From NCBI GenBank assembly GCA_963663235.2, contig CAXXNO010000011.1, forward strand, positions 1-64,000: DNA of 64,000 nt, read 5' to 3'. The stretch comes from Dehalococcoidia bacterium (GTDB lineage: Bacteria > Chloroflexota > Dehalococcoidia > Bin125). A program made the translations under genes and the position numbers. Position 1 is the stretch's first letter, and each line of letters begins with the position of its first letter. Shown one piece after another: positions 27,414 through 48,586 of this stretch. The notes beneath the pieces are model-generated. The model was not told where the DNA came from. It saw only the letters and a program-made list of their open reading frames with translations, and searched no databases.

Positions 27414-27804
27414 ATGCGCCTGCGCGCCTATCTGATCACAATGGTCATCGCCGGCGCGGTGGCCGCCCCGCTCTTCGGCATCGTGCGTAGCGACAGCTTC
27501 CCTATCTCCACCTATCCCATGTTCGCCAGCGCGCGCACATCAGAAGTCGCCATCTCCCACGCGCTCGCCGTGCGCACCGACGGCGAGCGGCGTCCGTTGC
27601 CACCATCGGCGGTGGCGAACGCGGAAGTCATTCAGGCCTTTGAGACGGTGCGGCAGGCTCTCCGCCAAGGGCCCGAGGCGACGCAGGCCCTCTGCAACCG
27701 CATCGCGGCGGGCCTCGCTCACTCGGGCGGACAGAGGGGGACGAAGCGGGTGGAGATCGTGACGGACCGCTTCGACGCGGTCTCGTACTTCAAAGGCGAC
27801 ACCC
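27414..27804 (+). pseudogene. Membrane-anchored hypothetical protein, C-terminus cut by IS3 insertion
   Basis: TM segment then DSFPISTYPMFA; frame runs into the IS3 left end at 27805. Confidence 0.6.
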
Positions 27805-29046
27805 TGACCTGCCCCCCCAGAACCGGTCCAGATCCTGTGCGAGGATTCGGGCCGGTGCGAAGGGAGTCGGCATGGCACGCAAGCGGTACGCGGCCGAGGA
27901 GATCATCGGCCACCTGCGGGAGGCGGAGGGGGTGCTCGCGCCGGGGGAATCGGTCGCGCCGGTCGCGCGCCGCCTCGGCGTGGCCGAGCCAACGTATTAC
28001 CGCGGGCGGCGGGAGGACGGGGGGCTGCGGGTCGACCCGGCCAAGCGGCTGAAAGAACGGGAGCGCGAGAACAGTCGGCTGAAGCGGGTGGTGGCCGATC
28101 AGGCGCGGGCCAACGCGATGGTGCGGGACGTCGCAGCGGGAAACTTCTGAGCCCGGCCAAGCGGCGCCGGGCGACATCCTACCGCACGGACCCGTACGCG
28201 GTGTCGGAGCGGCGGGCCTGCCCGGTCACCGGCCAGGCGCGGGCGACCCAGCGCGACGTGCCCCGGCCGTCCCCGGATGCGCCGGCGCTGATCGCGCGCA
28301 GCGTCGCGCTGGCCCCCCGCTGCGGCCGCTACGGCTCCCGTCGCATCCCGGCCCGGCTGCGCCAGGCGGGCTGGCGGGTGAACCCCAAGCGGGTCGAGCG
28401 GCGCTGGCGTCAGGAAGGCTGGCGGGTCCCCGGGAAGCACCCCCAACGGGGCCGCCGCTGGCTCGCGGCCGGCTCGCTGGTGCGGCGGCGGGCCGAGCGG
28501 CCGTCCCACGTCTGGTCCGACGCCTTCGTCTTCGACCGCACCGCCGATGGGCGCCCGGTGCGGATCCTCGCCCTCGTGGATGAGGACCACCCGCGAGGGC
28601 CTGCGTCTCGACGTCGCCCGCCGACGGCGCCGCGACGTCGGCCTGGCGCGGTTGGCCCAGCTGTTCGTCGAGCGCGGGCCGCCGACGTTTCTGCGGTCCG
28701 CCAACGGCCCGGCGTGCACCGCCACCGCGGTGCGGGACTGGCTGCACCGGGTCGGGGGCACGACCCGCTTCATCGAACCGGGCAGGCCTTGGGCGAACGG
28801 CTCTGGGGAATCGTTCAACGGCAAGCTGCGCGACGCGTGCCTCAATCGCGAGCGCTTCGACACCCTGCTGGAAGCCCAGATCCTCATCGCGGGCTGGCGG
28901 CGGGAGGACAACCCGATCCGCCCCCACCGTGCCCTCGGCTCCCGCCCCCCCGCCCCGGAAACGCAGCAACCCCGGGAACGTCCCATGACGCGCGTCCCGG
29001 CGATCGGACTCACTTAACGACTGGTACAACGATCGGGGGCAGGTCA
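27805..29046 (+). mobile_element. IS3-family element, hypermutated and inactive
   Basis: TIRs TGACCTGCCCCC / GGGGGCAGGTCA; orfA 27872..28150; GGGAAAC slippery site 28138-28144; orfB with +1 frameshift near 28587 and mutated DDE motifs. Confidence 0.93.
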
Positions 29047-29343
29047 CTGGAGGAGCAGCGCGGCGACGTCGCGGAAGCGGAGCGTGTACCGGAGACGCCA
29101 GAGTACGGCGAGCAGGACGATATCCGTCGGGTACTGGAGATCGTTGACCGGGGCGCCGGTCCGCTCGTTGAAGGTCCTCCGGCAGGCGCGGCACGCGGAG
29201 GTGCGGTAGCCGAGGGCGGTGCGCCGCCGCCGTCGGCTGGTCTCTCCGGAGCCCCAGTGGGGACAGTCCACAAGCAGTCCTCCCCAGGTCGCTGGTGAGC
29301 GCGACGCTAGCAGAGGACCCGTGGTCTGAGATCTGACGGAACC
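29047..29343 (-). mobile_element. IS6-family 5' fragment truncated by IS3
   Basis: TIR GGTTCCGTCAGATCT at the right end; RTALGY...FNERTG...NDLQYPTDIVLLAVLWRLRY. Confidence 0.88.
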
Positions 29344-29375: not shown

Positions 29376-30269
29376 GTGAGCAGCCAAACGCAAGCATACC
29401 TGTACGCGGGAGGTGCGGTTCTCCTGTGGGCGACCGCCGCGTCGGCGTTCAAGGTGTCGCTGCGCTACGTCGAAGCGCCGCACATGCTGCTCTACGCGAC
29501 GATCGTATCGACGCTGGTGCTGCTCGCCGTCGCGGCCTGGCAGCGCAAGCTGGGGCAGGCGCTGATCGGTTCGCCCAAGCAGTATCTGCGGTCGGCGGCG
29601 CTCGGCCTCCTCAACCCGTTCCTCTACTACCTCGTGCTGTTCGAGGCTTACGACCGTCTGCCCGCCCAAGAGGCGCAGCCGCTCAACTATGCCTGGCCCA
29701 TGGTGATCGTGATCCTCTCGGTGCCGCTGCTCAAGCAGCCCCTGGGCAGGATCTCCCTGGCCGCGATCGCGGTGAGCTTCTGCGGCGTGCTCGTGATCGC
29801 GACGCGCGGCGACCTGCTGGCCTTTCGCGTGAGCGATCCGGTCGGCACGGCCCTGGCGGTCGGCAGCGCCTTCATTTGGGCCACGTTCTGGCTGACCAAT
29901 GTCCGGGACGACCGCGATGCCGTCGTCAAGCTGCTGCTGAACTTCGCCTTCGGATTGGTGTTCGTTCTCGCCGCGGCCTTCGCCCTGGCCGGCCCGCCGC
30001 CTCTGGACCTGCGCGGCATCGGAGGATCGGCGTACGTCGGCGTCTTCGAGATGGGCCTGACCTTCGTCCTCTGGATGCGCGCCCTCTCGCTCTCGCGGAC
30101 GACCGCGCAGGTCAGCAACCTCGTCTACCTATCGCCGTTCCTCTCGCTCATCCTCATCAACATCATCGTGGGGGAGGCGATCCGGCCGTCCTCGGTGATC
30201 GGTCTGCTGCTCATCATCGGTGGAATCGCCATCCGCCGCTTCGATCGGACCGCGCCGCGACCGGTCTGA
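29376..30269 (+). CDS. DMT/EamA family transporter
   Basis: About 10 hydrophobic segments; LNYAWP, LVYLSPFLS. Confidence 0.9.
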   Translation: MSSQTQAYLYAGGAVLLWATAASAFKVSLRYVEAPHMLLYATIVSTLVLLAVAAWQRKLGQALIGSPKQYLRSAALGLLNPFLYYLVLFEAYDRLPAQEAQPLNYAWPMVIVILSVPLLKQPLGRISLAAIAVSFCGVLVIATRGDLLAFRVSDPVGTALAVGSAFIWATFWLTNVRDDRDAVVKLLLNFAFGLVFVLAAAFALAGPPPLDLRGIGGSAYVGVFEMGLTFVLWMRALSLSRTTAQVSNLVYLSPFLSLILINIIVGEAIRPSSVIGLLLIIGGIAIRRFDRTAPRPV

Positions 30270-30579
30270 AGCACCGCTTCTTCCGACCCGGCCCGAACCA
30301 CCTTCATCGGTAGCGCGCCCTCACCAGCGCTCGCCTCACAACGCAATGGCGGGCCCACGCGTACTGCATTGCGATCTTTCGCACTGGTCGTGACGCGGTA
30401 GGTCTCTCTGCCCCCGGCACCGTCGCAGGCGGGGCGGTCCCCAAGAAGCGACGACCGTCTGGTGATCGCGGCCACGCGCACGAGCAGCGTGGGTGCTTAC
30501 GGCGCCGTTTTCGAACTCAGAGTGCTCCTCGCACTGATCGCAGTCGCGGCTGGGGTTCGCTCTCCGACGGAGGCCGGTA

Positions 30580-30930
30580 TCAGTGGGTGTCGAAGTCGTT
30601 GTACTTGGGGCACGTGCCCAGCTCGAGGATGGCGTAGATCTCGAAGAGGGTCTGTTCCAGTTGGTCCTTGATTGGAACCGCCCGGAAGGTCATCGCTCGC
30701 ACTCGCTTCCTCTGCTCGCCGAACTCCGCGCTGTGAGCCTTCTCGATGTCCTTGGCGGCGCCTCCCGGGTCGCCCAGCTCCTTTCGCAGCAGCTTGAAGG
30801 CGAAGGTCGCGGAATGTCTGCCTGAACTATCCGCCCCATGCTCTCGGATCCGGTCCCGCATCCTGTTGGAGCGGCCTACATAGATGGGTCCCCCTCTCTT
30901 GTAGAAAACGTACACGCCCTGTTCCGGGGC
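30580..30930 (-). pseudogene. GIY-YIG nuclease family protein, 5' end cut by IS insertion
   Basis: GVYVFY...IYVGRS...RIREH motif; IS TIR begins at about 30932. Confidence 0.75.
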
Positions 30931-30931
30931 C

Positions 30932-31980
30932 TATAGGACCACAAAACACGGATCGTGTCTGAGATTGCGCCGGAGCGCCCGCCCGCCGAGCCTCCTCCCA
31001 GATGGGAGGGACGCATGCGCACCGTGCTTGCCCTATTCGTTGGACTGCTGGCTCGCGTCGGACGCTCGCGGCAGGATCTTCTCCTCGAGAACTTCGCCCT
31101 GCGCCATCACCTGATGCTGTGCGCGCGCCGCCCGCGCGTGACCGAGGTCGATCGTCTGCTCTGGGCGCACCTCCGCCGTCGCTGGTCGGGCTGGCGCACG
31201 TCCCTGGTGATCCTCCATCCGGACACGGTCGGGCGGTGGCATCGCACCGGCTGGGGCCGGTTCTGGACCTGGACCTGATTCTCCGCCGTGCGCGGGAGAA
31301 TCCGCGCTGGGGCGCGGTGCGCATCCGGGCCGCGCTGCGGACGCTCGGTTCCGACGTGCGGGCGGAGACGGTCCGCCGCTACCGGCGGCAGGCCATGCGG
31401 CGGCCGCCTGCGCAGCGCTGGCGGACCTTCCTCCCCAACCAGCGCGGCGTCCTCTGGGCGGCGGACTTCTGCCCCGTCCCGACGCTCACGTTCGGGACGG
31501 TGTCCGTCTTCTTCCTCATCGCGCATGCCCGGCGCCGCATCGAGTCCGTCAACCTCACGGCCTATCCCACGGCGGCCTGGACCTGGCAGCCGCTGATCGA
31601 GGCCACGGCCTGGACCCATCGCCCGCGCCTACGGGCGCGACGGCGTGGCCCGGGCGCAGCGGCTTGGGATTGGGCCGATCTGGACACCGGTGCGGGCTCC
31701 GCAAGCGAATGCCGTGGCCGAGCGCTGGGTCGGGACGCTCCGACGCGAGGGCTTGAATGACATCACTCCGCTCAACGCGCGGCACCTGCAGCGGATCGTC
31801 CAAGAGTTCGTCGCCTCTGACAACGAGACTCGTCCCCATCGGACCCTCGCCCTCCATCCGCCAGCCGGGCCGCGCGCGCCACAGCGGCACGGGCGCGTCG
31901 TCGCGCCCCCGATTCTGGGAGGCCTCCATCATCGCTACGAACGGGCCGCTGCCTGACGATCCGTATTTTGTGGCCCGACA
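30932..31980 (+). mobile_element. IS481/IS3-like (rve integrase core) element, heavily mutated with internal deletions
   Basis: TIRs TATAGGACCACAAAACACGGATCGT / ACGATCCGTATTTTGTGGCCCGACA; fragments LLLENFALRH, WAADFC, ANAVAER, ILGGLHH. Confidence 0.9.
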
Positions 31981-32010
31981 GGCAGAGCGGGCGGCGATCG
32001 CCGCGGGCCG

Positions 32011-32754
32011 TTAGTAGATGATGAAGATGATCCGGACGGAGGCGGTGACCTGTTCGTCGCCCCCGAAGATGGGGGCGGCGGTGGGCTCGGAGTCGGCGGC
32101 ATCCTCGGCCGGGACCTCCTCAACGCCGACCGGGGTGCTGTGGCCGCTCTCCTCGATGACGCGCACGCGGCCCAAGTGGACGCCGGCGCGCTCGGCCATG
32201 GCGGCCGCCTTGCGGCGGGCTTCGTCGATGGCGGCGAGCCGGGCGGTGTCCTCCAAGGCGGCGCGGTTGCTGACGAGGAAACGGATGCGGCTGATGGAAA
32301 CGGCGTCGCCGCCAGCTCCCACCGCGGCGTCGATGACGTCGCCGATCGTGTCCACGCCGTCGATGATGACGCGAATGGTGTTGCTGAAACGGAAGCCGAT
32401 GCTGACGCGCGCTTCCACGGTGTAGTCAAAGTCCTCGTCGAGGGCAATGCGGACGGTCTGGAGGTCTTCATCGGCGACGCCGTGCTCGCTGAGCGCGGCG
32501 CGGACGCCGTTCAGCGCCTCCGCGCCAGCGGCCAGGGCCTCGGACGCGGTGGGCCGGCGCGCGGAGACGTGGATGTCGATGCTTGCGCCGTCGGGCGCCG
32601 CGGTGACCGTGGCCGAGCCGGTGACCGTCAGGGTGCGCAAGACGTGCAGCGGCCCGTGCGCTTCCGTGCGCTGGCTCCCGCCCAGCGCGAACACCCCCAC
32701 AGCCAGCGCCGCGGCCAATGCGATCCCAATGCCCATCATGCGCAGTCGTCCCAT
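32011..32754 (-). CDS. SIMPL (DUF541) domain protein
   Basis: Signal peptide; TVTGSATVTAAPD, AIDEARRKA...LGRV. Confidence 0.9.
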   Translation of the reverse strand: MGRLRMMGIGIALAAALAVGVFALGGSQRTEAHGPLHVLRTLTVTGSATVTAAPDGASIDIHVSARRPTASEALAAGAEALNGVRAALSEHGVADEDLQTVRIALDEDFDYTVEARVSIGFRFSNTIRVIIDGVDTIGDVIDAAVGAGGDAVSISRIRFLVSNRAALEDTARLAAIDEARRKAAAMAERAGVHLGRVRVIEESGHSTPVGVEEVPAEDAADSEPTAAPIFGGDEQVTASVRIIFIIY

Positions 32755-33044
32755 TGCGGTTCCCCTTCGCTGGGAAGCCCACCGTCGGTGGGGCTCCCGC
32801 CGCCTGATCAACGCCGTGCCCGATGCCTTGGTTCCGCGCGCCGGGCGCGCCGCGGCGGTGAGAGTAATGGTGCGCCGTCGCGGAGAGAGCCCCCCATCGC
32901 GCTACCCGACCAGCGGCGGCGGCTCACCGAGCGCTGGCGAGCTTTGCTTGTTGCACGCGTTGCCACGGAAGCGCCGGAGCACCGAATCCCCCCACGATCG
33001 CAGTCACTTGAAACGCCGACATCTAATGTAGAGCACATCGAACA

Positions 33045-33876
33045 GGTTCTGTCAGAACACAGGGCACGGATGACGCGCAGTGAAGCCCCTCACTGTTGCC
33101 CTGTCTACGCCGCCGCCATTTCGGCGATCAGTGCATGCCAGCGCCCGACGAAGCGTCGTCGCTGCTCGGCCAGGGGGACGCCCTCGCCGCGGCGACCGCG
33201 AGCGCGCAAGTACTGGCGGAGCTCCTCAAACGCCGAGCAGAAGCGTGCCGCTGAGGCGAAGCTCCCGAAACCGAGCATCGGGTCATCGCGCTGCTGCACC
33301 GCGCGGTGGTCCTGTTCCGTGAGGTTGTTGCGGTATGGATTCGTCCGGTGCACGACCTTCCGTCCCAGGATCCAGCGGATCGCTCTGCGGTACGGCGGAG
33401 GCTGGTCCGTGGTGACGCGCGGCGGCTTGCGCTCGGCCACGTCAACGAGTCGCCGCAGGAAACGCCGCGCGGCGTGCTTGTCGCGGTGCTCGCTGCGCAT
33501 GGAGTCGAGGAGCACCCCCTCGCGGTCGATGGCGCGGTCGAGAGAGCACCAGCGCCCGGCGCCCTTCACGGAGGTCTCGTCCAGGGACCAGGAGCCGCCG
33601 GCCTGGCCGCGCCGCTTCGCTCGCAGCGGGTCCGCGAGCCGCGGGGCGAAGCGGACCTCCCAGGCGCGGATCGGCTCGTGCGTGACCTCGAAGCCGCGCT
33701 GGAGGAGCAGCGCAGCGACGTCGCGGAAGCCCAGCGTGGAGCGGAGACGCCAGAGCACGGCGAGCAGCACGATGTCCGTTGGGTACTGCAGATCGTTGAA
33801 GGGCGTGCCGGTCCGCTCGTTGAAGCGCCGCCGACAGGCCTGGCAGCGGAACCGCCGGGAGCCGAGTGCGGTGCGG
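33045..33876 (-). mobile_element. IS6-family element, 5'-truncated and hypermutated
   Basis: TIR GGTTCTGTCAGA at 33045; DET, TTD, EQDHR motifs; interrupted by the IS at 33877. Confidence 0.92.
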
Positions 33877-34998
33877 CCGTGGGGCGGCAAAACCTCATGC
33901 GGCCCACCGATACTCATGATGCAACCCTCCTAGCACCGGCTTGCTGTCGACTCGCTGGCTCGGCATCCGCTGCATCGGCTTGCGTCCCTCCGGAGAGTCG
34001 AGCGCCAATGACCGATGCGGCCGCATCGCGTTGTAGTGCTGGACGTACTCACCAAGCACCCGCCTCAGATGCCGTTCGTTGACGGCGATGACGTGATCGA
34101 GGCACTCGCGCCGGAGCGTCCCGATCACCCGCTCGGCGATGGCGTTGGCGTTCGGCGCGCGCACCGGAGTCAGAATCGTCTCGATCCCGATCCGTCGAGC
34201 GCGTGCGATGAAGTCCCCGCCATAGCTACGGTCGCGGTCTCGGATGAGGAACCCTGGCTGCTCACCCCAGACGGTCGCCTCGATCATCTGCCTCCAGATC
34301 CAGGGCGCGATCGGGTGCTCCGTGACGTTCCAGTGCCGGATGCGGCGCCGGCCGTGGTCGATCACGACGAACACGTAGAGCGTGCGGAAGGTGAGGGTCT
34401 GCACCGTGAACAGGTCAGCAGCCCAGATGCTGGACGGGTGGTTGCGCAGAAACGTGCGCCACGACTGACTCGGCGGTCGCCGGAGCGCCTGCTGACGGTA
34501 GCGGCTCACGGTGCGAGCGCTCACGTCGAAGCCAAGCGCACGCAGCTCACCAACGATGCGGACGGCGCCGCACCATGGATTCTCAGTGGCGATGCGCAGG
34601 ATCAGCCGCTGCCACTCGGCGGGAATGTGGGGACGCCCAGGTCCGCGACGACTCTTCCAGCGCCAGTAGGCGCGCCAAGCAGAACGATGCCACCGCACAA
34701 CCGTGTCCGGCTCGACCATCACGAGCGTGCCTCGCCAGCCGGACCAACCGCGTGCCAGTAGTGACCAGAATCGGCGGTCGTGGCGACGGAGCCGCAGTCG
34801 ACGACGGCCCCGGGTGTAGACGGCGAGCTGATGCCGCAGCGCTAAGTTCTCGAGGACGAGATCTCGGCGGGCGCGGACCGAAGCGAAGAGTGCTGCGACA
34901 AGCAGACGGAGGTAGAGCACAGACGAGCCTCTCGTGGCTCGCCGATACTCTGCTATCTCAGGACAGAGCTGCACCTATCAGGTTTTGCCGTCCCACGG
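33877..34998 (-). mobile_element. IS481/IS3-like element, near intact (transposase 33895..34920)
   Basis: TIR CCGTGGG(G/A)CGGCAAAACCT at both ends; WAADLF, IRDRD, AERVIGTLRRECLD, YNAMRPH; flanks GTGCGG / GTACGG. Confidence 0.92.
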
Positions 34999-35228
34999 GT
35001 ACGGCCTACCGTCAAGTCAGGTCCACCAGACTTGACGGAATCAAGAACCTTCACGCTGAGATTCACACTGGCGCTGTAGATATTCCGTCGTGGGGAGGAG
35101 ACGTAGCCTTCCCGAATTGAAGTGGTGGTAGCCGCCGGCCGGCGCACCGCCAACGAGGTCATCCAGGATTCCGAATGTCACAGCAGACTCGCCCGCCGTT
35201 TCCCGGTCTCCTCTCCGCCCCTAAGCTC

Positions 35229-36392
35229 CTACTGATACATCCAGGCGTCGAAAAGGTCGTTCGCCCGAACGCCGTTTGCGTCAACTAGCTGCGCGTCCGA
35301 GCCAAAGCCAATCCAGGCGATCTGGCTCTCTCCAACAATCAACGCGGGCTTGCCCTCTGGGGCAGCGCTGAAGATGAGCGTATCCGTGCCGCTTCCACCC
35401 AGCAGTGGCAGTTCCCACCCTCCGGTGGATGGCTCCAAGACGTACAACACAATCTCGCCCTGAACAAACACGGGCTTGCTGAAGGTGACATCCACGTTGC
35501 CATCACCGTTGCGGGCGAGACCCAAGACCGTGGCCGGCCCTTGGACGCCGCTGGAGAGCGCCTCCGGCGGAAGCTCTATGTAGTTCTCAGGCGGTTCTAT
35601 CGAAAGGGGCTCCCCGAAACCGTGGTAGCGGATGGTGACGACGTCGCCTGCCTCACCGCCGAGGCCCACCACGGAGACCCGGACCTCCCTGGTCAGAAAG
35701 TCATCGGCGCCCACGACACGGGTGAGGTTGCCGGCTGACAGAAGGTCCCTGCCGCCCATCCCGCCGCTCTGTTCGGCGGGATGTTCAGTGACAAGCACGT
35801 AGCCCTTGGTCCCGTCGTCGAAGGTCACCATCTCCCCCAGCGTGGTTGGGACGTCGTTCGGCAGGTACAGCAGCCCGACCATCTGCATAACGCTCAACAG
35901 CGCGTCATCGGGAGGAGCGCCCTTGACCCACTGCATGGATGCTGGGTCTTGGAAGTAGGTGTCCGCTCCGATGGTCACGCCATTGATGTCGATTGTCTGC
36001 CCCGCGGGCCCCAGGGATACGGTGTATTGGAGCTTGTCCGGCAGAAGAACCCCGCCGCTCAGCCGCATGAGGCCCTCCCCAGCTCCCTCCGGCGCGCCTT
36101 CCACAGGAAAGACGGCCAGCAGATTGAACGTTGCGTCAAAGGAGAAGCTCTCATACTGCTGCATGGCCTGGGTGTTGCACGCAATGACCGTTGTAGTGTC
36201 GTCCAACGTGCTGCCTGCCGTACAACCGTCGGCAAGGATGATGCCGCCGGAAACGGCGACGCCGGGATCGATGCTGGTTGTGGGGTCCGTGACGACGGAC
36301 GGCTGCGCCGTCGTTTCGGAGTCGTCCCCGCAGGCGGCTAAGGCCGCGAACGCCAGAGCGATGACCATTGCCAGGAAGAAGCTCTTTTTCAC
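35229..36392 (-). CDS. Lipoprotein (LppX/LolA-like fold possible)
   Basis: Lipobox LAAC; GTG start after AAGGGA. Confidence 0.75.
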   Translation of the reverse strand: MKKSFFLAMVIALAFAALAACGDDSETTAQPSVVTDPTTSIDPGVAVSGGIILADGCTAGSTLDDTTTVIACNTQAMQQYESFSFDATFNLLAVFPVEGAPEGAGEGLMRLSGGVLLPDKLQYTVSLGPAGQTIDINGVTIGADTYFQDPASMQWVKGAPPDDALLSVMQMVGLLYLPNDVPTTLGEMVTFDDGTKGYVLVTEHPAEQSGGMGGRDLLSAGNLTRVVGADDFLTREVRVSVVGLGGEAGDVVTIRYHGFGEPLSIEPPENYIELPPEALSSGVQGPATVLGLARNGDGNVDVTFSKPVFVQGEIVLYVLEPSTGGWELPLLGGSGTDTLIFSAAPEGKPALIVGESQIAWIGFGSDAQLVDANGVRANDLFDAWMYQ

Positions 36393-36544
36393 GTCAGTTC
36401 CCTTCGATGAGGATTTCCATCTGATCCAATAGGTCTGGGCCCGGAAGGCCGCTACCTCTATCGTCAGTGGCTTTCATACCATTACACAGAGAAGTACCTA
36501 GTGGCGTGATGTGGCTGGGGTACGGCGGCGCGTGGCCAGACGAC

Positions 36545-36715
36545 GCGCCGGTGGAGGGTCGCGCCCCCAGCCGCGCAGCGGTCGAGCATCGCCAGCGCTG
36601 CCTCGCGCTCGGCGTAGCCGCTCGCCTGGGTCAACTCGACGTCCAGCACCAGGCCGTGGCGGTTCTCGGTGAGCAGATGGCCCAGGTAGCAGAGCTTCGC
36701 CGTCTGTCTCCGGGC
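36545..36715 (-). mobile_element. IS5-family transposase internal fragment
   Basis: Translates AKLCYLGHLLTENRHGLVLDVELTQASGYAEREAALAML. Confidence 0.7.
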
Positions 36716-36768
36716 CGTGGGGCGGAGCCTCCCGAGCGGAGGGAGCCGCGCCCGCGATCTCCTCCCCC

Positions 36769-38004
36769 TTGCAGGTGGAGCAGCTGCCGATCGCGGATCT
36801 CCATCCCGATCCGGGCAACCCCCGCCGCATCGGGGAGGACGAACTGGCGGCCCTGACCCGCTCGATCGCCACGTTCGGGGTCGTCGACCCGGTGCTCGCC
36901 CGCCGCGCCGACCGGCGCGTGATCGCCGGCCACCAGCGGCTCGTCGCCGCCCGCCGCGCTGGCCTCACGACGGTGCCGGTGATCCTGCTCGACCTCCCGG
37001 CGGAGGACGCCCGGCTGCTCAACGTCGCCCTGAACCGGATCGGCGGGGAGTGGGACGCCGACCTGCTGGCCCGCCTGCTGATCGACCTGCGCACCACGGC
37101 GGACCGCGACCTGACGCTGAGCGGCTTCGCCGAGGCCGATCTCCAGGACCTGCTCACTCGCTTCGACCAGCGGGAGAAACGGGCCCGCCCGGAGCGGTTC
37201 GACCTGGACGAGGCGCTGGCGGCGGTCGACCGCGAGGCCAGCGGGATCGCCCCCGGCGCCGGCTGGCAGCTGGGCGCGCACCGCCTCTTCCGGGGCGACG
37301 CCACGGACGCGGCGTTCGTGGCCCGGTGCCTGGGCGACGGGCCCGCGGCCCTGGTCTTCACGGACCCGCCCTACAACGTGGCCTACGGCGCCCACGGCGG
37401 CCGGGCGGCCGACGCGCCCGCCCGGCGCCTCGTCAACGACGCCATGCCCGAGGAGGAGTGGGAGCGCTTCTGCCGGGCCTGGGCGGTGAGCCTGGCGGCC
37501 AACGCGGCCGGCGCCCTGTACGTCTGCATGAGCAGCAAGGAGTGGCCGGTCGTCTGCCGCGCCCTGGCCGAGGCCGGGGCGCACTGGTCGGACACGATCA
37601 TCTGGGCCAAGGACCGCTTCACGCTGGGCCGGGCCGACTATCAGCGCCAGTACGAGCCGATCTGGTACGGCTGGCCCCAGGGGACCACCCGTCAGTGGCA
37701 GGGCGGGCGCGACCAGAGCGACGTCTGGCACATCCCGCGTCCCGCCGCCTCGCCGCTGCACCCCACCCAGAAGCCGCTGGCCCTGGTCGAGCGGGCGATC
37801 GCGAACTCCAGCACCCCCGGCGCCACGGTCCTGGACCCCTTCTGCGGCGCGGGCACGACGCTGATCGCCTGCGAGCGCACCGGGCGCCGGGCCGTCGGGG
37901 TCGAGATCGACCCGCGCTACGTGGCGGCCACGATCGCGCGCTGGGAGGCGTTCACGGGCGCGGCCGCCGTGCCCCTGGAACCGAGGGAGGCGACCGATGG
38001 CTAG
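36769..38004 (+). CDS. ParB-like N-terminal domain fused to N4/N6 DNA methyltransferase (phage type)
   Basis: NPR...IAGHQRL (ParB); TDPPYN, HPTQKP, DPFCGAGTT. Confidence 0.92.
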   Translation: MQVEQLPIADLHPDPGNPRRIGEDELAALTRSIATFGVVDPVLARRADRRVIAGHQRLVAARRAGLTTVPVILLDLPAEDARLLNVALNRIGGEWDADLLARLLIDLRTTADRDLTLSGFAEADLQDLLTRFDQREKRARPERFDLDEALAAVDREASGIAPGAGWQLGAHRLFRGDATDAAFVARCLGDGPAALVFTDPPYNVAYGAHGGRAADAPARRLVNDAMPEEEWERFCRAWAVSLAANAAGALYVCMSSKEWPVVCRALAEAGAHWSDTIIWAKDRFTLGRADYQRQYEPIWYGWPQGTTRQWQGGRDQSDVWHIPRPAASPLHPTQKPLALVERAIANSSTPGATVLDPFCGAGTTLIACERTGRRAVGVEIDPRYVAATIARWEAFTGAAAVPLEPREATDG

Positions 38005-38392
38005 CCGTCCCGCCTGCCAGGCACTGACCCAGAACGGGCGCCCCTGCCGGGCGCCGTCCCTGCGCGCGGGCAGCGCCTGCTTCTGGCACGCGCCCGAGTC
38101 CCGCGAGGACGCCACCGAGGCGCGCCGGCTGGGGGGCCTGCGCCGCCGGCGCGAGGGCACGGTCGGGGGCGCCTACGGCCTGGAGGGGTTCCGCACGGAC
38201 GCGGATCTGCAGCGCGTCCTGGAGCTGGCGCTGACCGACACGCTGGAGCTGGAGAACTCGATCGCGCGCGCGCGGGCGCTGGCCCACCTGGTGTCCGTCG
38301 GGGTCCGGGTCAAGGAGACCGCGGAGTTCGAGGCGCGCCTGCGGGCGCTGGAGGTGGGCGTGGGGCGGGAGGCCTCCGATGCGGGGCCGTGA
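37997..38392 (+). CDS. Phage/satellite hypothetical protein with N-terminal C-x9-C-x10-C-x2-H motif
   Basis: CQALTQNGRPC...CFWH; ends EARLRALE; start overlaps the MTase stop. Confidence 0.7.
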   Translation: MASRPACQALTQNGRPCRAPSLRAGSACFWHAPESREDATEARRLGGLRRRREGTVGGAYGLEGFRTDADLQRVLELALTDTLELENSIARARALAHLVSVGVRVKETAEFEARLRALEVGVGREASDAGP

Positions 38393-39101
38393 GCGCCGCC
38401 TCCACACGGTCGCGACCCGCCTGACGGTGCGGCAGCGGGTCGTGGCGCTGCTCGCGGCCGGGCCCGGCGATGCCGTGCTGCGCGACAGCCTCTGGCGCGG
38501 GCTCACGCCGGGCGAGCGGGCCGCATTCCGCCGCGACTGCGCCCGGCTCGATCACCTCGACGCGACCGCGCACCTGTGCCTGGCCTGGGCCGCGGGCCAA
38601 GTCGGCGCGCTGGAGGCGGTCGCGGGCTGGTTCGCGACCGTCCGCCTCGGCGCCGTCCTGGCGGAGTCCCTGGAGGACGCACTTGACTGCGGGGAGCCCC
38701 GTCGCGGCCCGGGCGCGGGCGGCGACGGGGACCTGAACAAGGCGGCGCGCCGGGTCGCGCGCCGGCTGCGGGGTCTGGCGGCGGGCGCGAGCGGCGCCGG
38801 TGGCCGGGAACCGCTGCGGCCGATCCTCGACGCCCGCCTCCGCGCCGGCGTCCCCGAGCTGCACCACCTGCTCCGCGCGTTGGAGATCGAGGTCGCGGCG
38901 TGCGCCGCGGCACTCGGCGCCGATCCGCTCGACCCCGCACTCCAGACCATCGCGGACCGCTGCCGCGCGCGGCTCAGGCCGCTTCCCGATCTGCCCGGGC
39001 TGGACCCGCCCATCGCGCTGACCGAGCCATCCGACGACGATGTCGCCGCGTTCGCCGCCCGCTGCCGCCCCGAGGAGGGTTCGGACGATGCCGCCTGGTA
39101 A
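38379..39101 (+). CDS. Hypothetical protein of the integrative element
   Basis: Overlaps the upstream gene; GGGAGG RBS. Confidence 0.6.
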   Translation: MRGRERRLHTVATRLTVRQRVVALLAAGPGDAVLRDSLWRGLTPGERAAFRRDCARLDHLDATAHLCLAWAAGQVGALEAVAGWFATVRLGAVLAESLEDALDCGEPRRGPGAGGDGDLNKAARRVARRLRGLAAGASGAGGREPLRPILDARLRAGVPELHHLLRALEIEVAACAAALGADPLDPALQTIADRCRARLRPLPDLPGLDPPIALTEPSDDDVAAFAARCRPEEGSDDAAW

Positions 39102-39171
39102 GTTACCGGCCGGACCCCGATCCGATAGCTCCCCTTACCATCCGATACCTCTGGTATCGATCGCGCGGTTG

Positions 39172-40158
39172 CTAAGGGTGGTAAGCCGGGGCGCGGGGGC
39201 CGGAGGGCGCGGGGCCGGCAGCCAGCAGACGGGCGGCGGGGCTGAAGGCGGCGTGCGCATCCGCCGCCTTGGCCGCGTCGTAGGTGGCGGAGTAGCGCCG
39301 CACCATGGCCGAGGTCGAGTGGCCCAAGAGGTACTGCACGTCCAGCTCCCGGGCGTGGTTCTCGATCGCCCAGGTGGCGAAGGTGTGGCGGAAGCGATGC
39401 GGGTTGGCGTGGACGCCGGCGCGCGCGCCCAGCCGGGTGAAGAGAGTGCCCAGGAGGTACGGGTTCATCGGCCCGCGGGGCTTCCTGGAGCGTTCGATCG
39501 TGAGGAACAGCGCCCCCGGCGCCTCGCTGCGGAAGCGCGCGATATAGTCGCGCAGCGCCTCGTCCGGTCCGTCGCCGAAGGGGACCACGCGCTGCTTGCG
39601 GCCCTTGCCGTGGCGGATGTGGATGCGCCGGGTCTCCCAGGACACGTCGGCCAGGGTGAGCCGGTGCAGCTCCGTGTAGCGCAGGCCGGTATCGAGGAAG
39701 AGCAGGATGATGGCCCGGTTGCGGCAGCCGAACTCCGTGGTGGGGTCGCAGACGTCCAGCAGCGCCTGGATCTCGTCCTCGGTGAGCGGCTGGATCACCT
39801 TCTGCTCCACTTTGACGTTGGGGATGCCCGTGAACGGGTTCCGCGCCGTATAGCCCATGCGAGTGCACCAGGAGAAGAAGGCCCGGGTCTCGCGGAAGCG
39901 GCGGTGCCGGGTGCCCAGGGAGACGCCGCCGTCGGCGATGACCTTGAGGAAGGCGTAGATGTGGGCCGGGCGGAAGGCCGCGACCCGATCGGGTAGGCCT
40001 TCGGCGGCGCAGATGGCGCGGAAGCGGCGCAGGGTCTCGGCGTAGGCCTGGACGGTGCGCCGGGTCTTGCCCTCCACCTCGCAGGCCGCCAGGTAGGCCG
40101 CGATCGCCTCATCCAGGCCGGTCCCCTCACCCGGGTCCGCTGCGAATTCCGCCGCCAT
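39172..40158 (-). CDS. Tyrosine recombinase / integrase
   Basis: DTGLRYTEL, GKGRKQR, HRFRHTFA, LLGHS, RRY catalytic residues. Confidence 0.95.
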   Translation of the reverse strand: MAAEFAADPGEGTGLDEAIAAYLAACEVEGKTRRTVQAYAETLRRFRAICAAEGLPDRVAAFRPAHIYAFLKVIADGGVSLGTRHRRFRETRAFFSWCTRMGYTARNPFTGIPNVKVEQKVIQPLTEDEIQALLDVCDPTTEFGCRNRAIILLFLDTGLRYTELHRLTLADVSWETRRIHIRHGKGRKQRVVPFGDGPDEALRDYIARFRSEAPGALFLTIERSRKPRGPMNPYLLGTLFTRLGARAGVHANPHRFRHTFATWAIENHARELDVQYLLGHSTSAMVRRYSATYDAAKAADAHAAFSPAARLLAAGPAPSGPRAPAYHP

Positions 40159-40296
40159 GACCCCCTCCTTTCGGCGAGTTCATGGACGCTCTGGCGGAGG
40201 ACGAAGTCAAGCGGATTCCGGAGCCGAACTTTTGCAGTCCGCTGCTCCAGGCCTGGATTCGGGCCGGATTCGCGGTGGTCCCATGAAGAAGCGGGA

Positions 40297-40341
40297 TGGT
40301 GGGCCCTCAGGGATTCGAACCCTGGACCTTCGGATTAAAAG
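40297..40341 (-). tRNA. 3' fragment of tRNA-Lys(UUU), putative att core; not a complete tRNA
   Basis: Minus strand CTTTTAATCCGAAGGTCCAGGGTTCGAATCCCTGAGGGCCCACCA: anticodon loop, T-arm, acceptor 3' strand and CCA; no D-arm or 5' half upstream. Confidence 0.85.
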
Positions 40342-40455
40342 GAAGCAGCTCGGTCGGTTTGAGAGCGGGTGCCGGCCGCACTCCGCGACGATGTGGGCGT
40401 CCGCGTAGAGCGGGCTGCGTGGGCCGAGAAGTGGACAGGTGGCACTCGACGTCTC

Positions 40456-41154
40456 CTACGCAACCAGCGTTCCGCGGGCCTTGCGACCCGAGTGGGGGAC
40501 GTGGAGCAGCGCGCGATACATGCGCGTCGCTGTTCTCGGTTCCTGCGGCAGTATGGGCACCGGGGCAGCAGTGAGGGCATCATCCCAGCCCGCAGCGAAG
40601 GCCTGATCGCGATCCCGTTTCTTATAGACGGCGCTGCGCGACACGTTCGCAGCTTCACAGGCGGCGCGGACGTTCCGCGTCTCCGCGAGCACGGCCAAGA
40701 ACCGTGGTTCCCACCCACGCCGCGCCCGAACGCGGTGTCGGACTGGTCCGCGCCATGCCGCCGGTGCCGATGTCTCCATTGGCGTATGGTCTTCCGCCGG
40801 AATCTCCTGCACCACCCCCGGGTGGTGGCCGACCGGCGCGGGCCGACGGGCCGCATACCGTTTCCCAGGCGCCGGGCCGTACTGCTCCGGTCGGAGGAGT
40901 TGGAGAATGAAGCGCAGGGCCGTACCAGACCCCTGCATCCCCGACACCCGTAGCGCCCCGAGCATGCGGTCATAGAACTCATCAGCGATCTCGGTGAAAC
41001 GGGCGTCAAACGGATCGTCGCTCTCCCGGCGCCGATGCACGGTCCGGGGACTCACGCCAGCCGCGCGGGCTGCCCAGCCGATGTCGCCACAGACCGCGAA
41101 GGCCTCAAAGAACCGGGGTTCCCAATCGCTTGGAGGCCGTCCTCGACGCGGCAT
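40456..41154 (-). CDS. Tandem HTH protein resembling phage terminase small subunits
   Basis: Two repeats WEPRF...AA(R/C)xAAxVSxxxVxxxRxxDxxF. Confidence 0.65.
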   Translation of the reverse strand: MPRRGRPPSDWEPRFFEAFAVCGDIGWAARAAGVSPRTVHRRRESDDPFDARFTEIADEFYDRMLGALRVSGMQGSGTALRFILQLLRPEQYGPAPGKRYAARRPAPVGHHPGVVQEIPAEDHTPMETSAPAAWRGPVRHRVRARRGWEPRFLAVLAETRNVRAACEAANVSRSAVYKKRDRDQAFAAGWDDALTAAPVPILPQEPRTATRMYRALLHVPHSGRKARGTLVA

Positions 41155-41523
41155 GCCTTTTCTCCCGTCGCTGCCCTGTGCTGACAGGTTAGCGCGGGAC
41201 GACCCCATCAATGCAAGTCACGGTTTTTGGTGGGCCATACGCGGGTTGCACGCGTTTATGCCGCCAAGCATGGGTCGGACGGTCAGCCCGAAGCCAGGGC
41301 GACCACGTGAATCACCCACCCGCACATGTCAAACGGGACGCGGATCCATCAATGGCGCTGCACAATGCAACGCGTCCCAAGGCGACGCCGATGACGCGCG
41401 GAGCATCTTCAGGGTGGGGCCGCCGCCCGTGGTGGGCGCATGGTAGCGGGTGGAGGAGGGGGTTTCAGCCGGGCACCATCGCACCGGGCATGTGGGAGCC
41501 GCGCCGGTCTGGTGGAAGAAGCC

Positions 41524-42648
41524 TGTGGTGTTTCAAAACCTCATCACGCTGCATCCCAGAAGTACTCATGGTGTAAGCCGCCCAGAATCGGCCGGCTCGC
41601 TAGGCGCTGCGCCCCACCACGGAGCGTCGGCGTCCGCGGACCGGATGGCGGCTGGTCGCCCAGAGACTGGTGGGGACGCGTGTCGTTGTCGTAGGCGACG
41701 TACTCGCGGAGCACCCGCCGGAGATGCCGTTCCGTGAGCACGATGAGATGGTCCAGACACTCTCGCCGGATCGTGCCAATCACCCGCTCCGCGATCGCGT
41801 TGGCTTTGGGGGCTCGCACGGGGGTCAAGATCGTTTCGATCCCCAGGGCCGCCGCCTTCGGCACGAAGTGACCGCCGTCGTTGCGATCCCGGTCGCGGAT
41901 CAGGAAGCGAGGCGCCGTGTTCCACGGGGTGGCGGCGATGATCTGCCGCCAGACCCAGGGCGCCGTGGGGTGCGCGGTCACGTTCCCATGCAGGATCCGG
42001 CGGCGGTCGTGACTGATCACGAAGAAGACGTAGAACGTCCGCAAGGTAAGCGTCTGCACGGTGAAAAAGTCGGCCGCCCAGATTTCGGGGGCATGCAGGC
42101 GCAGAAAGGTCCGCCAGGTGGGCGACGGCGCCGGCCTGATTCGGCGATAACGATAGACCGTTGTGGGACTCACGGGGTGCCCCAGCACAGCTAACTCGGC
42201 TGCGATGCGGCGCACGCCCCACGTGGGATTCTCCGCTGCCAGCCGGTCAATCAGGCGGCGCGTCTCCAGATCGATCCGCACCCGGCCGGGCTGACCGCCC
42301 CGGCTCTTCCAGCGCCAGTATCGGCGCCAGACAAACCGATGCCACCCGATGACGGTCGCCGGTTGAACGAGCTGCAGATGCGCACGCCAGCCGGCCCAGT
42401 TCCGCGCCGTGACGGACCAGAACCGGCGGTCGCGCGTCTGGAGCCGCGGTCGACGTCCGGACCGTTCCCACACCGCCAGCTGCTGGCGCAGAATCAGGTT
42501 CTCGAGGATCAGATCCCGTCGCCGCCGGCCGAGCATTCCCAGCCCGACCAGAAACAGTCGCCAATAGAGCCACATCGCCGTCCCTCCGCGCGAAGACTCT
42601 CTGGCGGACGCGACTCACACAAGGCCGATAGGGTTTTGAAACACCACA
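41524..42648 (-). mobile_element. IS481/IS3-like element (transposase 41544..42575), lightly mutated
   Basis: Perfect TIR TGTGGTGTTTCAAAACC; WAADFF, IRDRD, AERVIGTIRRECLD. Confidence 0.93.
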
Positions 42649-42875
42649 AGCACCAGAGCCCGCGCAGTCTCGATGCCAGCGCCGGTACCGGAGTCCAGCG
42701 TCCGCTGCGACCCGTCGTACCCCGATGCGTGCATCCCGCCCGCCCCGCCGGACCTCGATTGTGGGGACAGCCCGAATCGACACTTCCGGGTCGTTGGAAA
42801 CGACCCGCATCGGTTCGACGGCCGGGACTAGGACGGCATTGGATGCGAGAGCTAGCAGGGCATCGCTCGGCCCGC

Positions 42876-44111
42876 TCACGCAGCACACTGAACCCTCCGC
42901 GCTTCGTCGCGCAGCCTCCGCACACGAGCTGCTAAGCCGTCCACACGATGGAGAATTTCATCGAGTGTGCCGGATAGGTCGAGCGCAGTGACCTCAAGCC
43001 GCTTGCCGGCGTGCCGGACCTGGTAGGAGGTCGTGTCCGCCTCGCCCTCCGCGTATATCAGCAATCCACCTGGCAGACCGAGCGCCGTGGCGTATGCCAG
43101 CAACTGGTAGAGGTCGGTCTCAGGTACAGATGTACTGGTCACACTCTTGTACTTCGCATCACCCACGAACGTGCAGGTCTCCCCGTCCCACCAAGAAAGG
43201 TCAGGCTTGAGTTTCACGGTCCCCTTCTCATCGAGGGGGATCTTGCGACCGCCCGCATCGGAGGACAACGTTCGATCAGAAACGCCGAGCCTCTCCCTGA
43301 GCGCCACTGTCACGAAGTCTTGGAACAGCACGTTCATGTCCAGCAGGAAACCAGACGCTCGCACGTTGCCGCGGCCTGATTCGAACTCGCTGTGTCGCAG
43401 GATCAGCCGCGAGAGTCCCACGACGCCCCGATAGTGCTCGTTGAGCCGGTCGAAACGCATATCGGGGACAGCGTTCGGCGAGAACTCGACCGGCGAGACC
43501 TGCTCAAGCATCCCTGCAACTAATCCCAAGCCTCTGCGTGCCGCGTGCGACCGGAGGGGCATTCGGCCGAGCCGCCCGGCCGCCGCCTTCACCAGCCGGT
43601 TCGCCAGGATGTCGGCGGTGAACTCGTCGTATCGCACCTCGATCGGCAGAGCGCTCCCGAACCGCCGCCGCATCTGCTCGGTGAACCTGATGCGCCCCCG
43701 GACGGTGTGCAGTGCCTCCTCCTCCACCCGGTATCCGTGGAGAAGTCCGCGCCCGAACGCTCTTCGGGCGGCGGCGGCGAGCGCCAGCGCGAGCGTATCC
43801 GGCAATGTTTCCTTCTCCTCGAAATCAAACGGTCGTTCCTCTTGGAGCCTGAACACCCCCATGGCGTAGCAGGCCAGCGCCAGGAGTTGCGGGATTCCGA
43901 TCTTCGGCTCGATGAGCACTGACAGATCGCCGATCTCGACCGCCCCAACGGTTGAACCGGCCGTGAGGCGATATAGGCTCTCGCTCCCTGGGATCGGTTC
44001 GATCGAGGTGAGGGCGAGGGCTTTCCGTTCATGGAACAGGGCGTCGAGCTGGCCGATCGAGAGCGTATGGTTGCTTGGCTCGTACTCTTTCAGGTCAAGC
44101 TTGTGCTTCAT
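42876..44111 (-). CDS. mcrC: McrC family restriction endonuclease subunit
   Basis: RGRIRF, DMNVLFQDFV, LKPD...DAKYK, DLYQLLAYA; directly downstream of McrB. Confidence 0.92.
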   Translation of the reverse strand: MKHKLDLKEYEPSNHTLSIGQLDALFHERKALALTSIEPIPGSESLYRLTAGSTVGAVEIGDLSVLIEPKIGIPQLLALACYAMGVFRLQEERPFDFEEKETLPDTLALALAAAARRAFGRGLLHGYRVEEEALHTVRGRIRFTEQMRRRFGSALPIEVRYDEFTADILANRLVKAAAGRLGRMPLRSHAARRGLGLVAGMLEQVSPVEFSPNAVPDMRFDRLNEHYRGVVGLSRLILRHSEFESGRGNVRASGFLLDMNVLFQDFVTVALRERLGVSDRTLSSDAGGRKIPLDEKGTVKLKPDLSWWDGETCTFVGDAKYKSVTSTSVPETDLYQLLAYATALGLPGGLLIYAEGEADTTSYQVRHAGKRLEVTALDLSGTLDEILHRVDGLAARVRRLRDEARRVQCAA

Positions 44112-46441: not shown

Positions 46442-46827
46442 CTTCTCTCCGCCGCGTCTTGATCGCCGTCCTGAATCAGGGAAGTCTATATGGTCGTCGA
46501 CAGGGCTTTTGCCTTGTTGCGGGGCCATTAGTCCCAGTTCACGGGATGCTCGCAATCCTCCCCAGTGCTCCCACTCCGCTTCGTCCGGGAAACCAGCCGG
46601 TCTGTTCGACCCATCAAACGACCGCTGGTCGGACGGCGGGCCAGCGACACCAATGGCGAACTAGTGTGCCGTGATGGTCTGCCGCTGCGGCGCGCGTCCC
46701 GCGTCGCGCAGGTCTACCACTGCCCGAACTTCTCTTCTCGCCACGTGTCGCCGTTCACGAATAACACCTTCGCTAATTCCTGTCATTCCTGTCGCAACTC
46801 GGAGAAACGGAGAGTTTTCTGGTCGAC

Positions 46828-47107
46828 GGTTCCGTCAGATCTCAGGGCTCGTCGGGGAGCCTCGCCCATGACGCGACGAGGAGACGCCGATGCCCTGTCC
46901 CCGCTGGAGCTCGACCGCGACGACCAGGCGGCAACGCCGCACCGCACTCGGCTACCCCGAGGTTCAACTGCCGGGCATGCGGCCGGCGCTTCCACGAGCG
47001 GACCGGCCCGCCGTTCAACGATCTCCAGGACCCGACGGATATCGTCCGGCTCGCCGTGTTGGGGCGTCTCCGGTACACGCTCCGCTTCCGCGCCGTCGTC
47101 GCGCTCT
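46828..47107 (+). mobile_element. IS6-family 5' fragment (degenerate)
   Basis: TIR GGTTCCGTCAGATCTCAGGGCTCG; near copy of 47108-47390 with many changes and indels. Confidence 0.85.
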
Positions 47108-48061
47108 GGTTCTATCAGATCTCAGGGCTCGTCGGCGTAGCGTCGCCTCGTTCATGACGCAACGAGGAGACGCCGATGCACTGTCCGCACTGCCGCTCGA
47201 CTGCGACGACCAAGCGCAGGCATCGCACGACGCTAGGCTACCAGCGATTCAACTGTCGCGCGTGTGGACGGCGCTTCAACGAGCGGACCGGCACGCCCTT
47301 CAACGATCTCCAGTACCCGACGGACCTCGTGCTGCTCGCCGTGCTGTGGCGCCTGCGGTACAAGCTCAGCTTCCGGGACGTCGCCGAACTGCTCCTCGAG
47401 CGAGGCTACACGGTGACGCATGAGACGATCCGCGATTGGGAGTTCCGCTTCGCGCCACTCCTGGCGGACCGGCTTCGCGCCAAGCGGCGCGGTCGCGCGG
47501 GCGTCTCCTGGTACATCGATGAGACCTACGTGAAGGTCGCCGGGCGATGGTGCTACCTCTATCGCGCGATCGACCGGGAGGGCGCGCTGCTCGATTCGAT
47601 GCTGAGCGCGCACCGCGACAAGCACGCCGCGCGACGCTTCCTGCGGGGTCTCATACAGATCGCCGAACGGAAGCCCTTACGCATCACGACCGACGCGCAT
47701 CCCGCGTATCGCAAGGCGATCCGGTGGATCGTCGGGCGGAAGGTGCGACATCGCTGCAATCAATACCTCAACAACTGGATTGAGCAGGATCACCGCGCCA
47801 TCAAGCAGCGCTACTATCCGATGCGGGGCTTCGGGCGGTTCGCTTCCGCTGCCCAGTTCTGCGCGGCCTTCGATGCGCTGCGCCAGTACTTTCGCGTTCC
47901 GCCCCGGCCCGGACTACCGATCCCGTTGGCGACGCGGCGCCCGCTGTTCGTCGCCCGCTGGCGGTCCCTGATCCAGGAGATGCAGGTCGCCTAGGACACC
48001 ATCAACGCTCGCCGGATCACCACGCATCGTTGGCCCCGCTGCCCTCAGATCTGACAGAACC
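47108..48061 (+). mobile_element. IS6-family element, full length (transposase 47176..47994)
   Basis: TIRs GGTTCTATCAGATCT / AGATCTGACAGAACC; zinc-ribbon N-terminus; IDETYVKV, TTD, IEQDHR. Confidence 0.95.
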
Positions 48062-48406
48062 CGGTGAGGGTGTTCAGGTATCGATTGCATCGGTGCCGCA
48101 CCGTTCTCCCCAGGATCCCGCGGATCGCTCGGCGGTACGGCGGATGCGGGTCCGTCGTGACACGCTCGGGCTTGCGCTCGGCCACGTCCACCGCTGCCCA
48201 GTTCTGCGCGGCCTTCGATGCGCTGCGCCAGTACTTTCGCGTTCCGCCCCGGCCCGGACTACCGATCCCGTTGGCGACGCGGCGCCCGCTGTTCGTCGCC
48301 CGCTGGCGGTCCCTGATCCAGGAGATGCAGGTCGCCTAGGACACCATCAACGCTCGCCGGATCACCACGCATCGTTGGCCCCGCTGCCCTCAGATCTGAC
48401 AGAACC
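48062..48406. mobile_element. Inverted IS6 internal fragment (48062-48190) plus duplicate of the IS6 3' end (48191-48406)
   Basis: Minus strand DVAERKPERVTTDPHPPYRRAIRGILGRTVRHRCNRYLNT; 48191-48406 repeats 47846-48061. Confidence 0.85.
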
Positions 48407-48586
48407 CCGTGGACCGCTCGACTGAAAGCACCGAAGCGGCGGTTGGTGTCACGCGCATATTCGATTCGAGTATAGATCAATTGCTCCATCATGCAATCGT
48501 TGAACCCAGAATCACGGGCGAGGCGGGCCCGGAAGGCCGCCGCCCTCGCCTGGGCCTCCGCTGGATCGGTCGCCCGGGGCGTTGCG

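Follow-up and report, generated by a model that had tools for sequence, protein, structure and literature searches.

A:T-to-C:G decay in a truncated IS6-family relic and in other mobile elements of a Dehalococcoidia genome

The window analysed here is a stretch of 64,000 nucleotides, the first 64 kb of contig C11, from a 2.75-Mb genome of a marine Dehalococcoidia bacterium with 68% GC and 14 contigs. On its minus strand, at 33045..33876, lies a 5´-truncated relic of an IS6-family element, which we call copy B; the coordinates mark the exact extent of IS6 homology. An open frame crosses copy B at 33105..33917 (minus strand). Its length is 270 codons when counted from the ATG at 33917 and 274 codons from stop to stop, which bears out the initial annotation, where about 250 open codons were claimed; the ATG and the first codons fall outside the IS6 homology. 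The product scores 159.1 bits with the family model NF033587, above the cut-off of 125, and 102.4 bits with PF13610 (DDE_Tnp_IS240), and it retains the DDE residues. The right inverted repeat is present at 33045-33058 and the left one is missing, so the element is not bounded by inverted repeats at both ends. Also missing are approximately 14 N-terminal codons, and with them the first CxxC of a zinc finger that is present in all relatives, and the N-terminus which copy B has instead is unlike that of every relative.

The homology of copy B stops at 33876, where an IS481-like element (rve_3, PF13683) adjoins and truncates it. This element lies on the minus strand at approximately 33879..34974 and carries a frame of 359 codons (33898-34974); its ends were placed by loose ends and joints of metagenome contigs at 33878 and 34961-34974. 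By its structure, copy B is a dead IS6 relic whose 5´ end was cut off by the IS481-like insertion. The loss of the left repeat and of the N-terminal codons is sufficient for this, independently of any point changes. The summed contig depth of the IS481-like element reaches thousands in four public runs, and its own genome holds no other copy of at least 80% identity; other members of the same communities must therefore carry the element in abundance.

An intact IS6 element, copy A, occupies 47108..48061 on the plus strand (ends counted from the alignment). Its ORF at 47176-47994 encodes 272 aa and scores 208.5 bits with NF033587 and 141.3 bits with PF13610. Six genomic copies with an identical protein and intact inverted repeats are present, and within the aligned elements they differ at 3 nucleotide positions; copy A is an active element. 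Its insertion cut another IS6 copy, of which a 5´ fragment, recognized by homology, is left at 46890..47107 (plus strand). An internal IS6 fragment follows at 48062..48191 on the minus strand (homology and DNA alignment), and immediately downstream of it the plus strand at 48191-48339 duplicates the last 149 nt of the copy A ORF. One more 5´ fragment, most similar to copy L008 of genome G003 and cut by an IS3-like relic, was found by homology on the minus strand at 29044..29271. The relationship to IS6 that had been assigned initially to these fragments and to the ORF of copy A is thus confirmed. Elsewhere in the genome, C4:48402-49225 equals copy A except for the first ~190 nt, which are of another subfamily and contain small indels. 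In-place mutation was considered as the source of these differences and rejected in favour of a foreign 5´ segment; it is a clear case of recombination or conversion between IS copies.

The proteins of copies A and B are identical at 181 of 256 residues (71%), with zero gaps over the 256. The initial annotation had quoted seven codon contrasts between them, and all seven are found in the DNA alignment as well as in the protein comparison, where A/B read GRAGVSWY/GQAGGSWS, ETYVKV/ETSVKG, CYLY/CSLD, RYK/RST, HET/HEP, WEF/WEV and KQRYY/QQRDD. The further claim that this pair gives direct evidence of a mutational bias does not hold. A or T in copy A is replaced through transversion by C or G in copy B at 41 sites and the reverse is seen at 22 (p = 0.02), while transitions are skewed in the same direction, 46 versus 25, and all these counts take in the non-homologous first 14 codons. 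Because the asymmetry of the pair alone is weak and transitions are skewed alike, outgroup copies are needed.

We therefore aligned 34 IS6 copies in the codon frame of A, taken from the same genome, from its relatives and from named records; the records with related elements are metagenome-assembled genomes of Chloroflexota/Dehalococcoidia. Departure means a difference from a column on which 75% or more of the other 33 copies agree. Polarisation relied on column majorities and on outgroup copies, with changes on inner branches left unresolved, and copies that carry A>C/T>G changes at conserved columns are called hit. Copy B has 59 departures, and 26 of them are A>C (16) or T>G (10) on the coding strand. 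The other classes comprise 6 A>G/T>C, 7 C>T/G>A and 5 C>A/G>T, and the remaining departures include poorly polarised third-position changes. Five further copies (L023, L002, L008, L024 and C12:39938) resemble it, each with 20-30 A>C or T>G changes among 43-60 departures. The six intact GC-rich copies carry 3-8 each (34 among 253 departures), and the twenty low-GC marine copies, where C>T, G>A and C>A dominate, carry 0-2 each (7 among 482). The share in copy B thus exceeds that of the marine copies (Fisher p = 7e-22) and also that of the intact GC-rich ones (p = 7e-7). Expressed per site, 12.7% of the 205 conserved A:T sites of copy B changed by A>C/T>G, and its 287 conserved G:C sites changed in 2.4% by transitions and in 1.7% by transversions. 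In the hit copies A>G/T>C shows no rise, with 6 such changes in B and 3-10 in each other copy.

All 26 A>C/T>G changes of copy B affect first or second codon positions of family-conserved residues. Tyrosine is the foremost target: eight of the 13 Tyr codons now read Ser or Asp, and Lys, Glu, Thr, Phe, Leu, Val, His and Gln follow. The types of change are Tyr>Ser/Asp, Lys>Thr/Gln, Leu>Arg, Val>Gly, Glu>Ala, Thr/His/Gln>Pro and Phe>Val. Copy B has thus changed almost only by A:T>C:G, on both strands and at conserved first and second positions, and we are highly confident that an A:T>C:G-specific decay is itself real. On this point the initial annotation, which had expected polarisation with IS6 homologs to reveal an excess of A>C/T>G, proved right. 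A>C never creates a stop codon and T>G does so rarely; since indels are not raised either, it follows that the frame of copy B stays open. Measured against the IS6 family, both copies pass the model. Copy A corresponds to the family norm, with one 272-aa ORF, short terminal repeats and identical copies, whereas copy B is truncated, has one repeat and bears the 26 changes at conserved columns.

Smaller claims fared variably. It had been suggested that copy A is lightly hit too, and this is possible in view of its 8 A>C/T>G versus 2 A>G/T>C; against it stand the activity of the element, with six identical-protein copies and intact repeats, and the occurrence of MRGFG also in intact relatives. 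W>G, K>T and N>T are indeed present in the fragment at 48062-48190, but they are identical in copy C12:39938. In a first, cruder count, the fragment at 46890-47107 has 6 A>C among 11 departures, and the fragment at 29044-29271 is little hit (1 A>C).

The hits of copy B are largely shared. Only five belong to B and its twin alone, the twin being a 413-nt fragment at C8:209253-209665 with 96% identity, and the other 21 are common to at least one of L002, L024, L008, L023 and C12:39938, which are mostly in other genomes. Judged from this distribution, most of the hits are not copy B's own. The independent acquisition that had been presumed for the copies is thus borne out only in part, with parallel hits demonstrable in places. 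For example, B gained YY>DD only after parting from the twin, L023 gained the same change in parallel, and at one and the same Tyr column some public homologues carry Ser while others carry Asp. The combinations in which hits are shared among IS6 copies are mosaic and fit no single tree. No synteny between copy B and its closest foreign relative, L002, was found beyond the element, and the hit copies in other genomes have no flanks in common. Because of this mosaic sharing between genomes without shared flanks, hit copies or their pieces must have moved or recombined. Copy B and its twin differ at 17 positions, mostly third ones, and 12 of these are clustered in a stretch of 80 nt, apparently a recombination patch.

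Proteins in public records show the same pattern. We surveyed the best 120 public homologues of B together with copy A (n=121) at 191 conserved columns. A>C-type replacements number 0 in 62 proteins, 1 in 18, 2 in 9 and 3 in 2, and 30 proteins have four or more (up to 23). These 30 hit proteins out of 121, a proportion enriched by the use of a hit copy as the query, thus carry 4-23 A>C-type replacements and few others, with A>G-type ones numbering 0-4. Hits occur in 7/7 Tyr columns, 5/5 Lys columns and 18/22 Leu columns and never in those of Arg, Gly, Ala or Pro.

The signature is not limited to the IS6 family. At 27804..29046 (plus strand) lies a dead copy of an IS3-like element with 74% GC, broken frames and the A:T>C:G signature, in which the catalytic Asp of SDNG is replaced by Ala; the conserved SDNGPEF motif reads SANGPAC. 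The element is 1.25 kb long and has at least 15 genomic copies with 96-99.6% identity, others being for instance C11:110963-112206 and C11:127392-128643. It reached this number despite broken frames, and one may ask whether helper copies acted in trans. When the family is polarised against two less-changed copies, C4:40353-41603 and C8:175116-176361, 60 A>C/T>G changes stand against 4 reverse ones (p = 7e-14), while transitions (36 vs 29) and C<>G changes (28 vs 27) are symmetric. Polymorphism in at least two copies affects 47 columns, of which 44 can be polarised and 38 of these are A:T>C:G, 19 per strand. Root-to-tip counts in 12 full-length copies range from 51 to 64 for A>C, and every other class is constant. 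Singletons (n=23) comprise 6 A>C, 3 A>G, 4 C>A, 3 C>G and 7 C>T. The contrast between 6/23 A>C in singletons and 38/44 in shared variants (p = 1e-6) leads us to reject a constant spectrum, unless the singletons are assembly noise. In total, 79 of 374 IS3-like A:T sites are hit, and adenines preceded by 5´-A are spared (3/63 hit versus 76/311). Across 651 paralogous pairs of at least 400 nt, the strongly asymmetric ones are only IS3-like and IS6 pairs.

IS3-like relics of G003, G004 and G005, which represent other genera of the same family, show Tyr>Ser/Asp, Glu>Ala, Leu>Arg, Lys>Thr and the like at codons that are partly different (by eye and uncounted). Within the window, IS481-like pieces and a three-copy IS481-like element (30937-31953, 41547-42614) have Tyr>Ser/Asp at YYN and SYGG; altered motifs such as ASDNETRPH, AYDNDTRPH and RNDGG represent the same kind of change, again by eye and uncounted.

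Outside mobile elements we did not find the signature in PEP carboxylase, large duplications or intergenic GC. In an alignment of the single-copy PEP carboxylase gene with 19 orthologues of 53-60% identity (the misaligned row L098 was disregarded), A>C/T>G accounts for 2 of the 73 changes private to this genome. Duplications of 3-10 kb with 99.4-99.9% identity differ by 48 transitions, 19 A:T<>C:G, 6 C<>G and 4 A<>T. The GC content of intergenic spacers, 0.68-0.70, is below the 0.74 of the relic family and far below 0.91, the approximate mutational equilibrium that we calculate from the IS3-like counts. GC3, at 0.89 in 89 monooxygenase genes and 0.86 genome-wide, fits this equilibrium. Working genes provide a weak test, since selection removes most transversions at first and second positions. 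Internal stops, by which pseudogenes were sought, occur in 0/92 matches to luciferase-like monooxygenases (PF00296) and in 0/28 ABC ATPase matches, and GC2 outliers among the monooxygenase genes are small. One PF00296 gene is apparently split by a frameshift (C12:424362-425235). In paralogues genome-wide, G:C<>C:G is nearly as frequent as transitions (e.g. 55 vs 51, 34 vs 53), probably because third positions, at a GC3 of 0.86, switch back and forth between G and C.

What could produce such a spectrum? We suggest that the relics decayed under mutT-like pressure of oxidised dGTP on unselected DNA, probably in episodes, and we would give this statement as a whole, cause included, an even chance of being correct. 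G or 8-oxoG would be misinserted opposite template A and then fixed, and the pressure would act in this clade on DNA released from selection. It was probably episodic, since among the youngest changes the spectrum is closer to the ordinary one. Three features expected of a mutT-type process are seen here: A:T>C:G is the overwhelming class (38/44 and 60 vs 4 in the IS3-like family, though only 6/23 in its singletons, and 26/59 in copy B), both strands are affected (19/19 and 16/10, respectively) and there is no rise in indels, the 256 codons compared being free of gaps. Accumulation lines of mutT-deficient P. aeruginosa have 97% AT>CG and a low indel rate (PMC12318082). The relics resemble mutT mutators of E. 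coli and P. aeruginosa in the near-exclusive AT>CG on both strands, in few indels and in frequent changes to Ala, Gly and similar residues (PMC12318082). They differ in belonging to a wild uncultured lineage and in bearing the signature in dead mobile elements only. The reported context of 8-oxo-dGTP differs as well: GAA is not hot here and 5´-A is protective. T>G after runs of G, as treated in a preprint by Cherry, was also considered as a fit and rejected on account of different contexts.

Of the repair genes of this genome, MutS and MutL are present and whole, so that loss of mismatch repair was rejected as the cause, and Fpg is present too, as are six Nudix candidates. The best match to the MutT model TIGR00586 scores 34.6 bits against a cut-off of 97.9; the model passes in only 3 of 14 control genomes, and 0 of 61 genomes of the class, hit or not, pass the cut-off. 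A MutY-like gene at C12:439679-440425 (L105:380-1126, minus strand) encodes the catalytic domain alone, 248 aa which match positions 12-218 of the 351-position model. Loss of classical MutY leads to G:C>T:A, a change that is rare in the relics. In genomes with hit relics the MutY-like frame has 256 (G000, the present genome), 249 (G004) or 247 codons (G005), G003 has a 183-codon piece and G089 no match; in genomes with copies judged unhit it has 318 (G010), 366 (G090), 279 (G091) and 433 codons (G092). Longer MutY-like frames are also found in G006, G007 and G009, but these have no relics to judge. The contrast in length comes from small numbers of related genomes, and short frames occur elsewhere in the class as well. 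According to a review, MutY without its NUDIX-like domain is active, but A:oxoG is for it no better substrate than A:G (PMC9266487). Any bearing of the truncated MutY on A:T>C:G is conjecture.

The main competitor is a process confined to repeated or mobile DNA, which we regard as unlikely though far from negligible. It might take the form of heteroduplex A.G mismatches between diverged IS copies that are repaired by an adenine glycosylase and so spread A>C, of error-prone synthesis during copy-and-paste transposition, or of a targeted mutator resembling the defence known as RIP (repeat-induced point mutation). Sequences of IS3-like, IS6 and IS481-like type, which all transpose by copying, are the only ones where the signature was found; it is absent from PEP carboxylase, large duplicates and intergenic GC. 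Sharing of hits among copies is mosaic, recombination is visible (the foreign first ~190 nt of C4:48402, 12/17 differences of B and its twin within 80 nt), shared variants are far richer in A>C than singletons, and a MutY-like catalytic domain is encoded. On the other hand, biased conversion cannot yield C:G where every copy has A:T, yet 79 of 374 IS3-like sites are hit; of the five genomes with hit relics, one lacks a MutY match and another has just the 183-codon piece; and root-to-tip counts are roughly clock-like. The six near-identical active copies of A and the 10-kb duplications are unhit, unlike what RIP would do. Fungal RIP introduces C>T transitions into all duplicated copies. Common to RIP and our case are repeated mobile elements riddled with one class of point mutation, but here the class is A:T>C:G, and neither the identical active copies nor the large duplications are touched. 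In diversity-generating retroelements, adenines on one strand of a variable repeat give way to any base, for which a reverse transcriptase and a template repeat are needed. Adenines are targeted here too, but on both strands, only to C/G and over whole elements of 0.8-1.25 kb. No enzyme is known to perform such a change. It seems to us rather improbable that dead and perhaps live elements of this clade of Dehalococcoidia undergo a conversion of A:T to C:G restricted to repeated or mobile DNA, through glycosylase-driven biased conversion or a targeted mutator; this would be a bacterial counterpart of RIP, disabling insertion sequences with frames unbroken.

Other readings have less in their favour than pressure from oxidised dGTP. 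It could be argued that we see ordinary divergence of IS6 subfamilies in a GC-rich host, driven by selection for GC or by GC-biased gene conversion, as transitions in the raw comparison of A and B are skewed towards G and C too (46 vs 25), and C<>G changes and transitions dominate most paralogue comparisons. The polarised excess is however limited to one transversion class, with A>G/T>C not raised, and GC-biased conversion would favour transitions towards G and C as well, which in the IS3-like family are nearly balanced (36 vs 29). Residues invariant in the family are destroyed; given this and the absent left end of B, selection on the protein is implausible, and we consider ordinary divergence very improbable. 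Just as little credence is due to the idea that hit copies are functional variants of the transposase with frames kept open by selection. DDE is intact in B, which still scores above the IS6 cut-off, and hit copies 91-95% identical are found in different genomes without shared flanks. But B lacks the left repeat and the N-terminal Cys pair of the zinc finger, changes affect 8 of its 13 Tyr codons and a good many invariant residues, and IS3-like copies have the catalytic Asp replaced and frames broken, while the mutation class alone explains the open frame.

Least credible of all is an artefact of sequencing or assembly, even though 30/30 hit proteins come from one source archive, none of the contigs listed spans B, and the public run X16 shows only the other letter at some positions of B. 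The hits are locus-specific, with neighbouring genes and the six copies of A clean; they are shared by 15 copies whose unique surroundings differ, and from genome to genome the same codons carry different changes. Letters of the B reference were found at low depth at several positions in runs X17, X19 and X21, with unique flanks exact, which independently confirms B itself in part. Unique stretches within 30001-50000 have 0 differences from contigs of runs from two studies, and unique parts show 0 differences in X16, X17 and X19 and few in X21. In the region of B, 13 of the 15 best-supported differences listed from contigs of public runs have C/G in B and A/T in abundant relatives; these 13 stem from copies of other organisms.

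In comparative studies of bacterial polymorphism, mutation was reported to be A+T-biased nearly everywhere, so that selection or biased conversion would have to maintain high G+C (PMC2936535, PMC2936529). Dead insertion sequences, the only abundant unselected DNA of this genome with 68% GC, move towards G+C instead. Mutation accumulation in D. radiodurans, B. cenocepacia and M. smegmatis is GC-biased according to a review, with transitions outnumbering transversions 2-3 to 1 (PMC6330053). Our relics share with those GC-rich species a mutation biased to G+C, contrary to the general AT bias reported (PMC2936535), and differ from them in that one transversion class outnumbers everything else. Hitherto that class had been familiar from laboratory mutT mutator strains. 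Should the pressure act genome-wide, this would be mutation-driven GC-richness in a wild clade, and its spectrum could be read from the relics without cultivation. Were it confined to repeats, it would be a new bacterial way of disabling mobile elements and the more remarkable finding. A literature search, with subscription journals outside its coverage, yielded no report of insertion sequences riddled with A-to-C changes. Because long open frames are kept and family models are passed, such dead relics are annotated as transposases.

At 36673-40179, a ParB-N6/N4 DNA methylase, two GC-rich ORFs (GC2 0.66-0.68) without family matches and a tyrosine integrase make up a repeated integrative element, of which further copies reside on C3, C8 and C14. 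The island it forms (36.7-40.3 kb) is GC-rich, yet symmetric against its paralogue (32 vs 36), with no A:T>C:G skew. A McrBC-type restriction pair at 42879-46660 (McrC-like, 411 aa; AAA_5 McrB-like, 850 aa) lies in the lowest-GC stretch of the window (0.61; GC3 0.72-0.76) and is likely a recent acquisition within the IS-rich island. Finally, a hopanoid gene cluster at 57162-62055 comprises two squalene/phytoene synthase homologues, a squalene-hopene cyclase, a polyprenyl synthetase and an amine oxidase-type flavoprotein.
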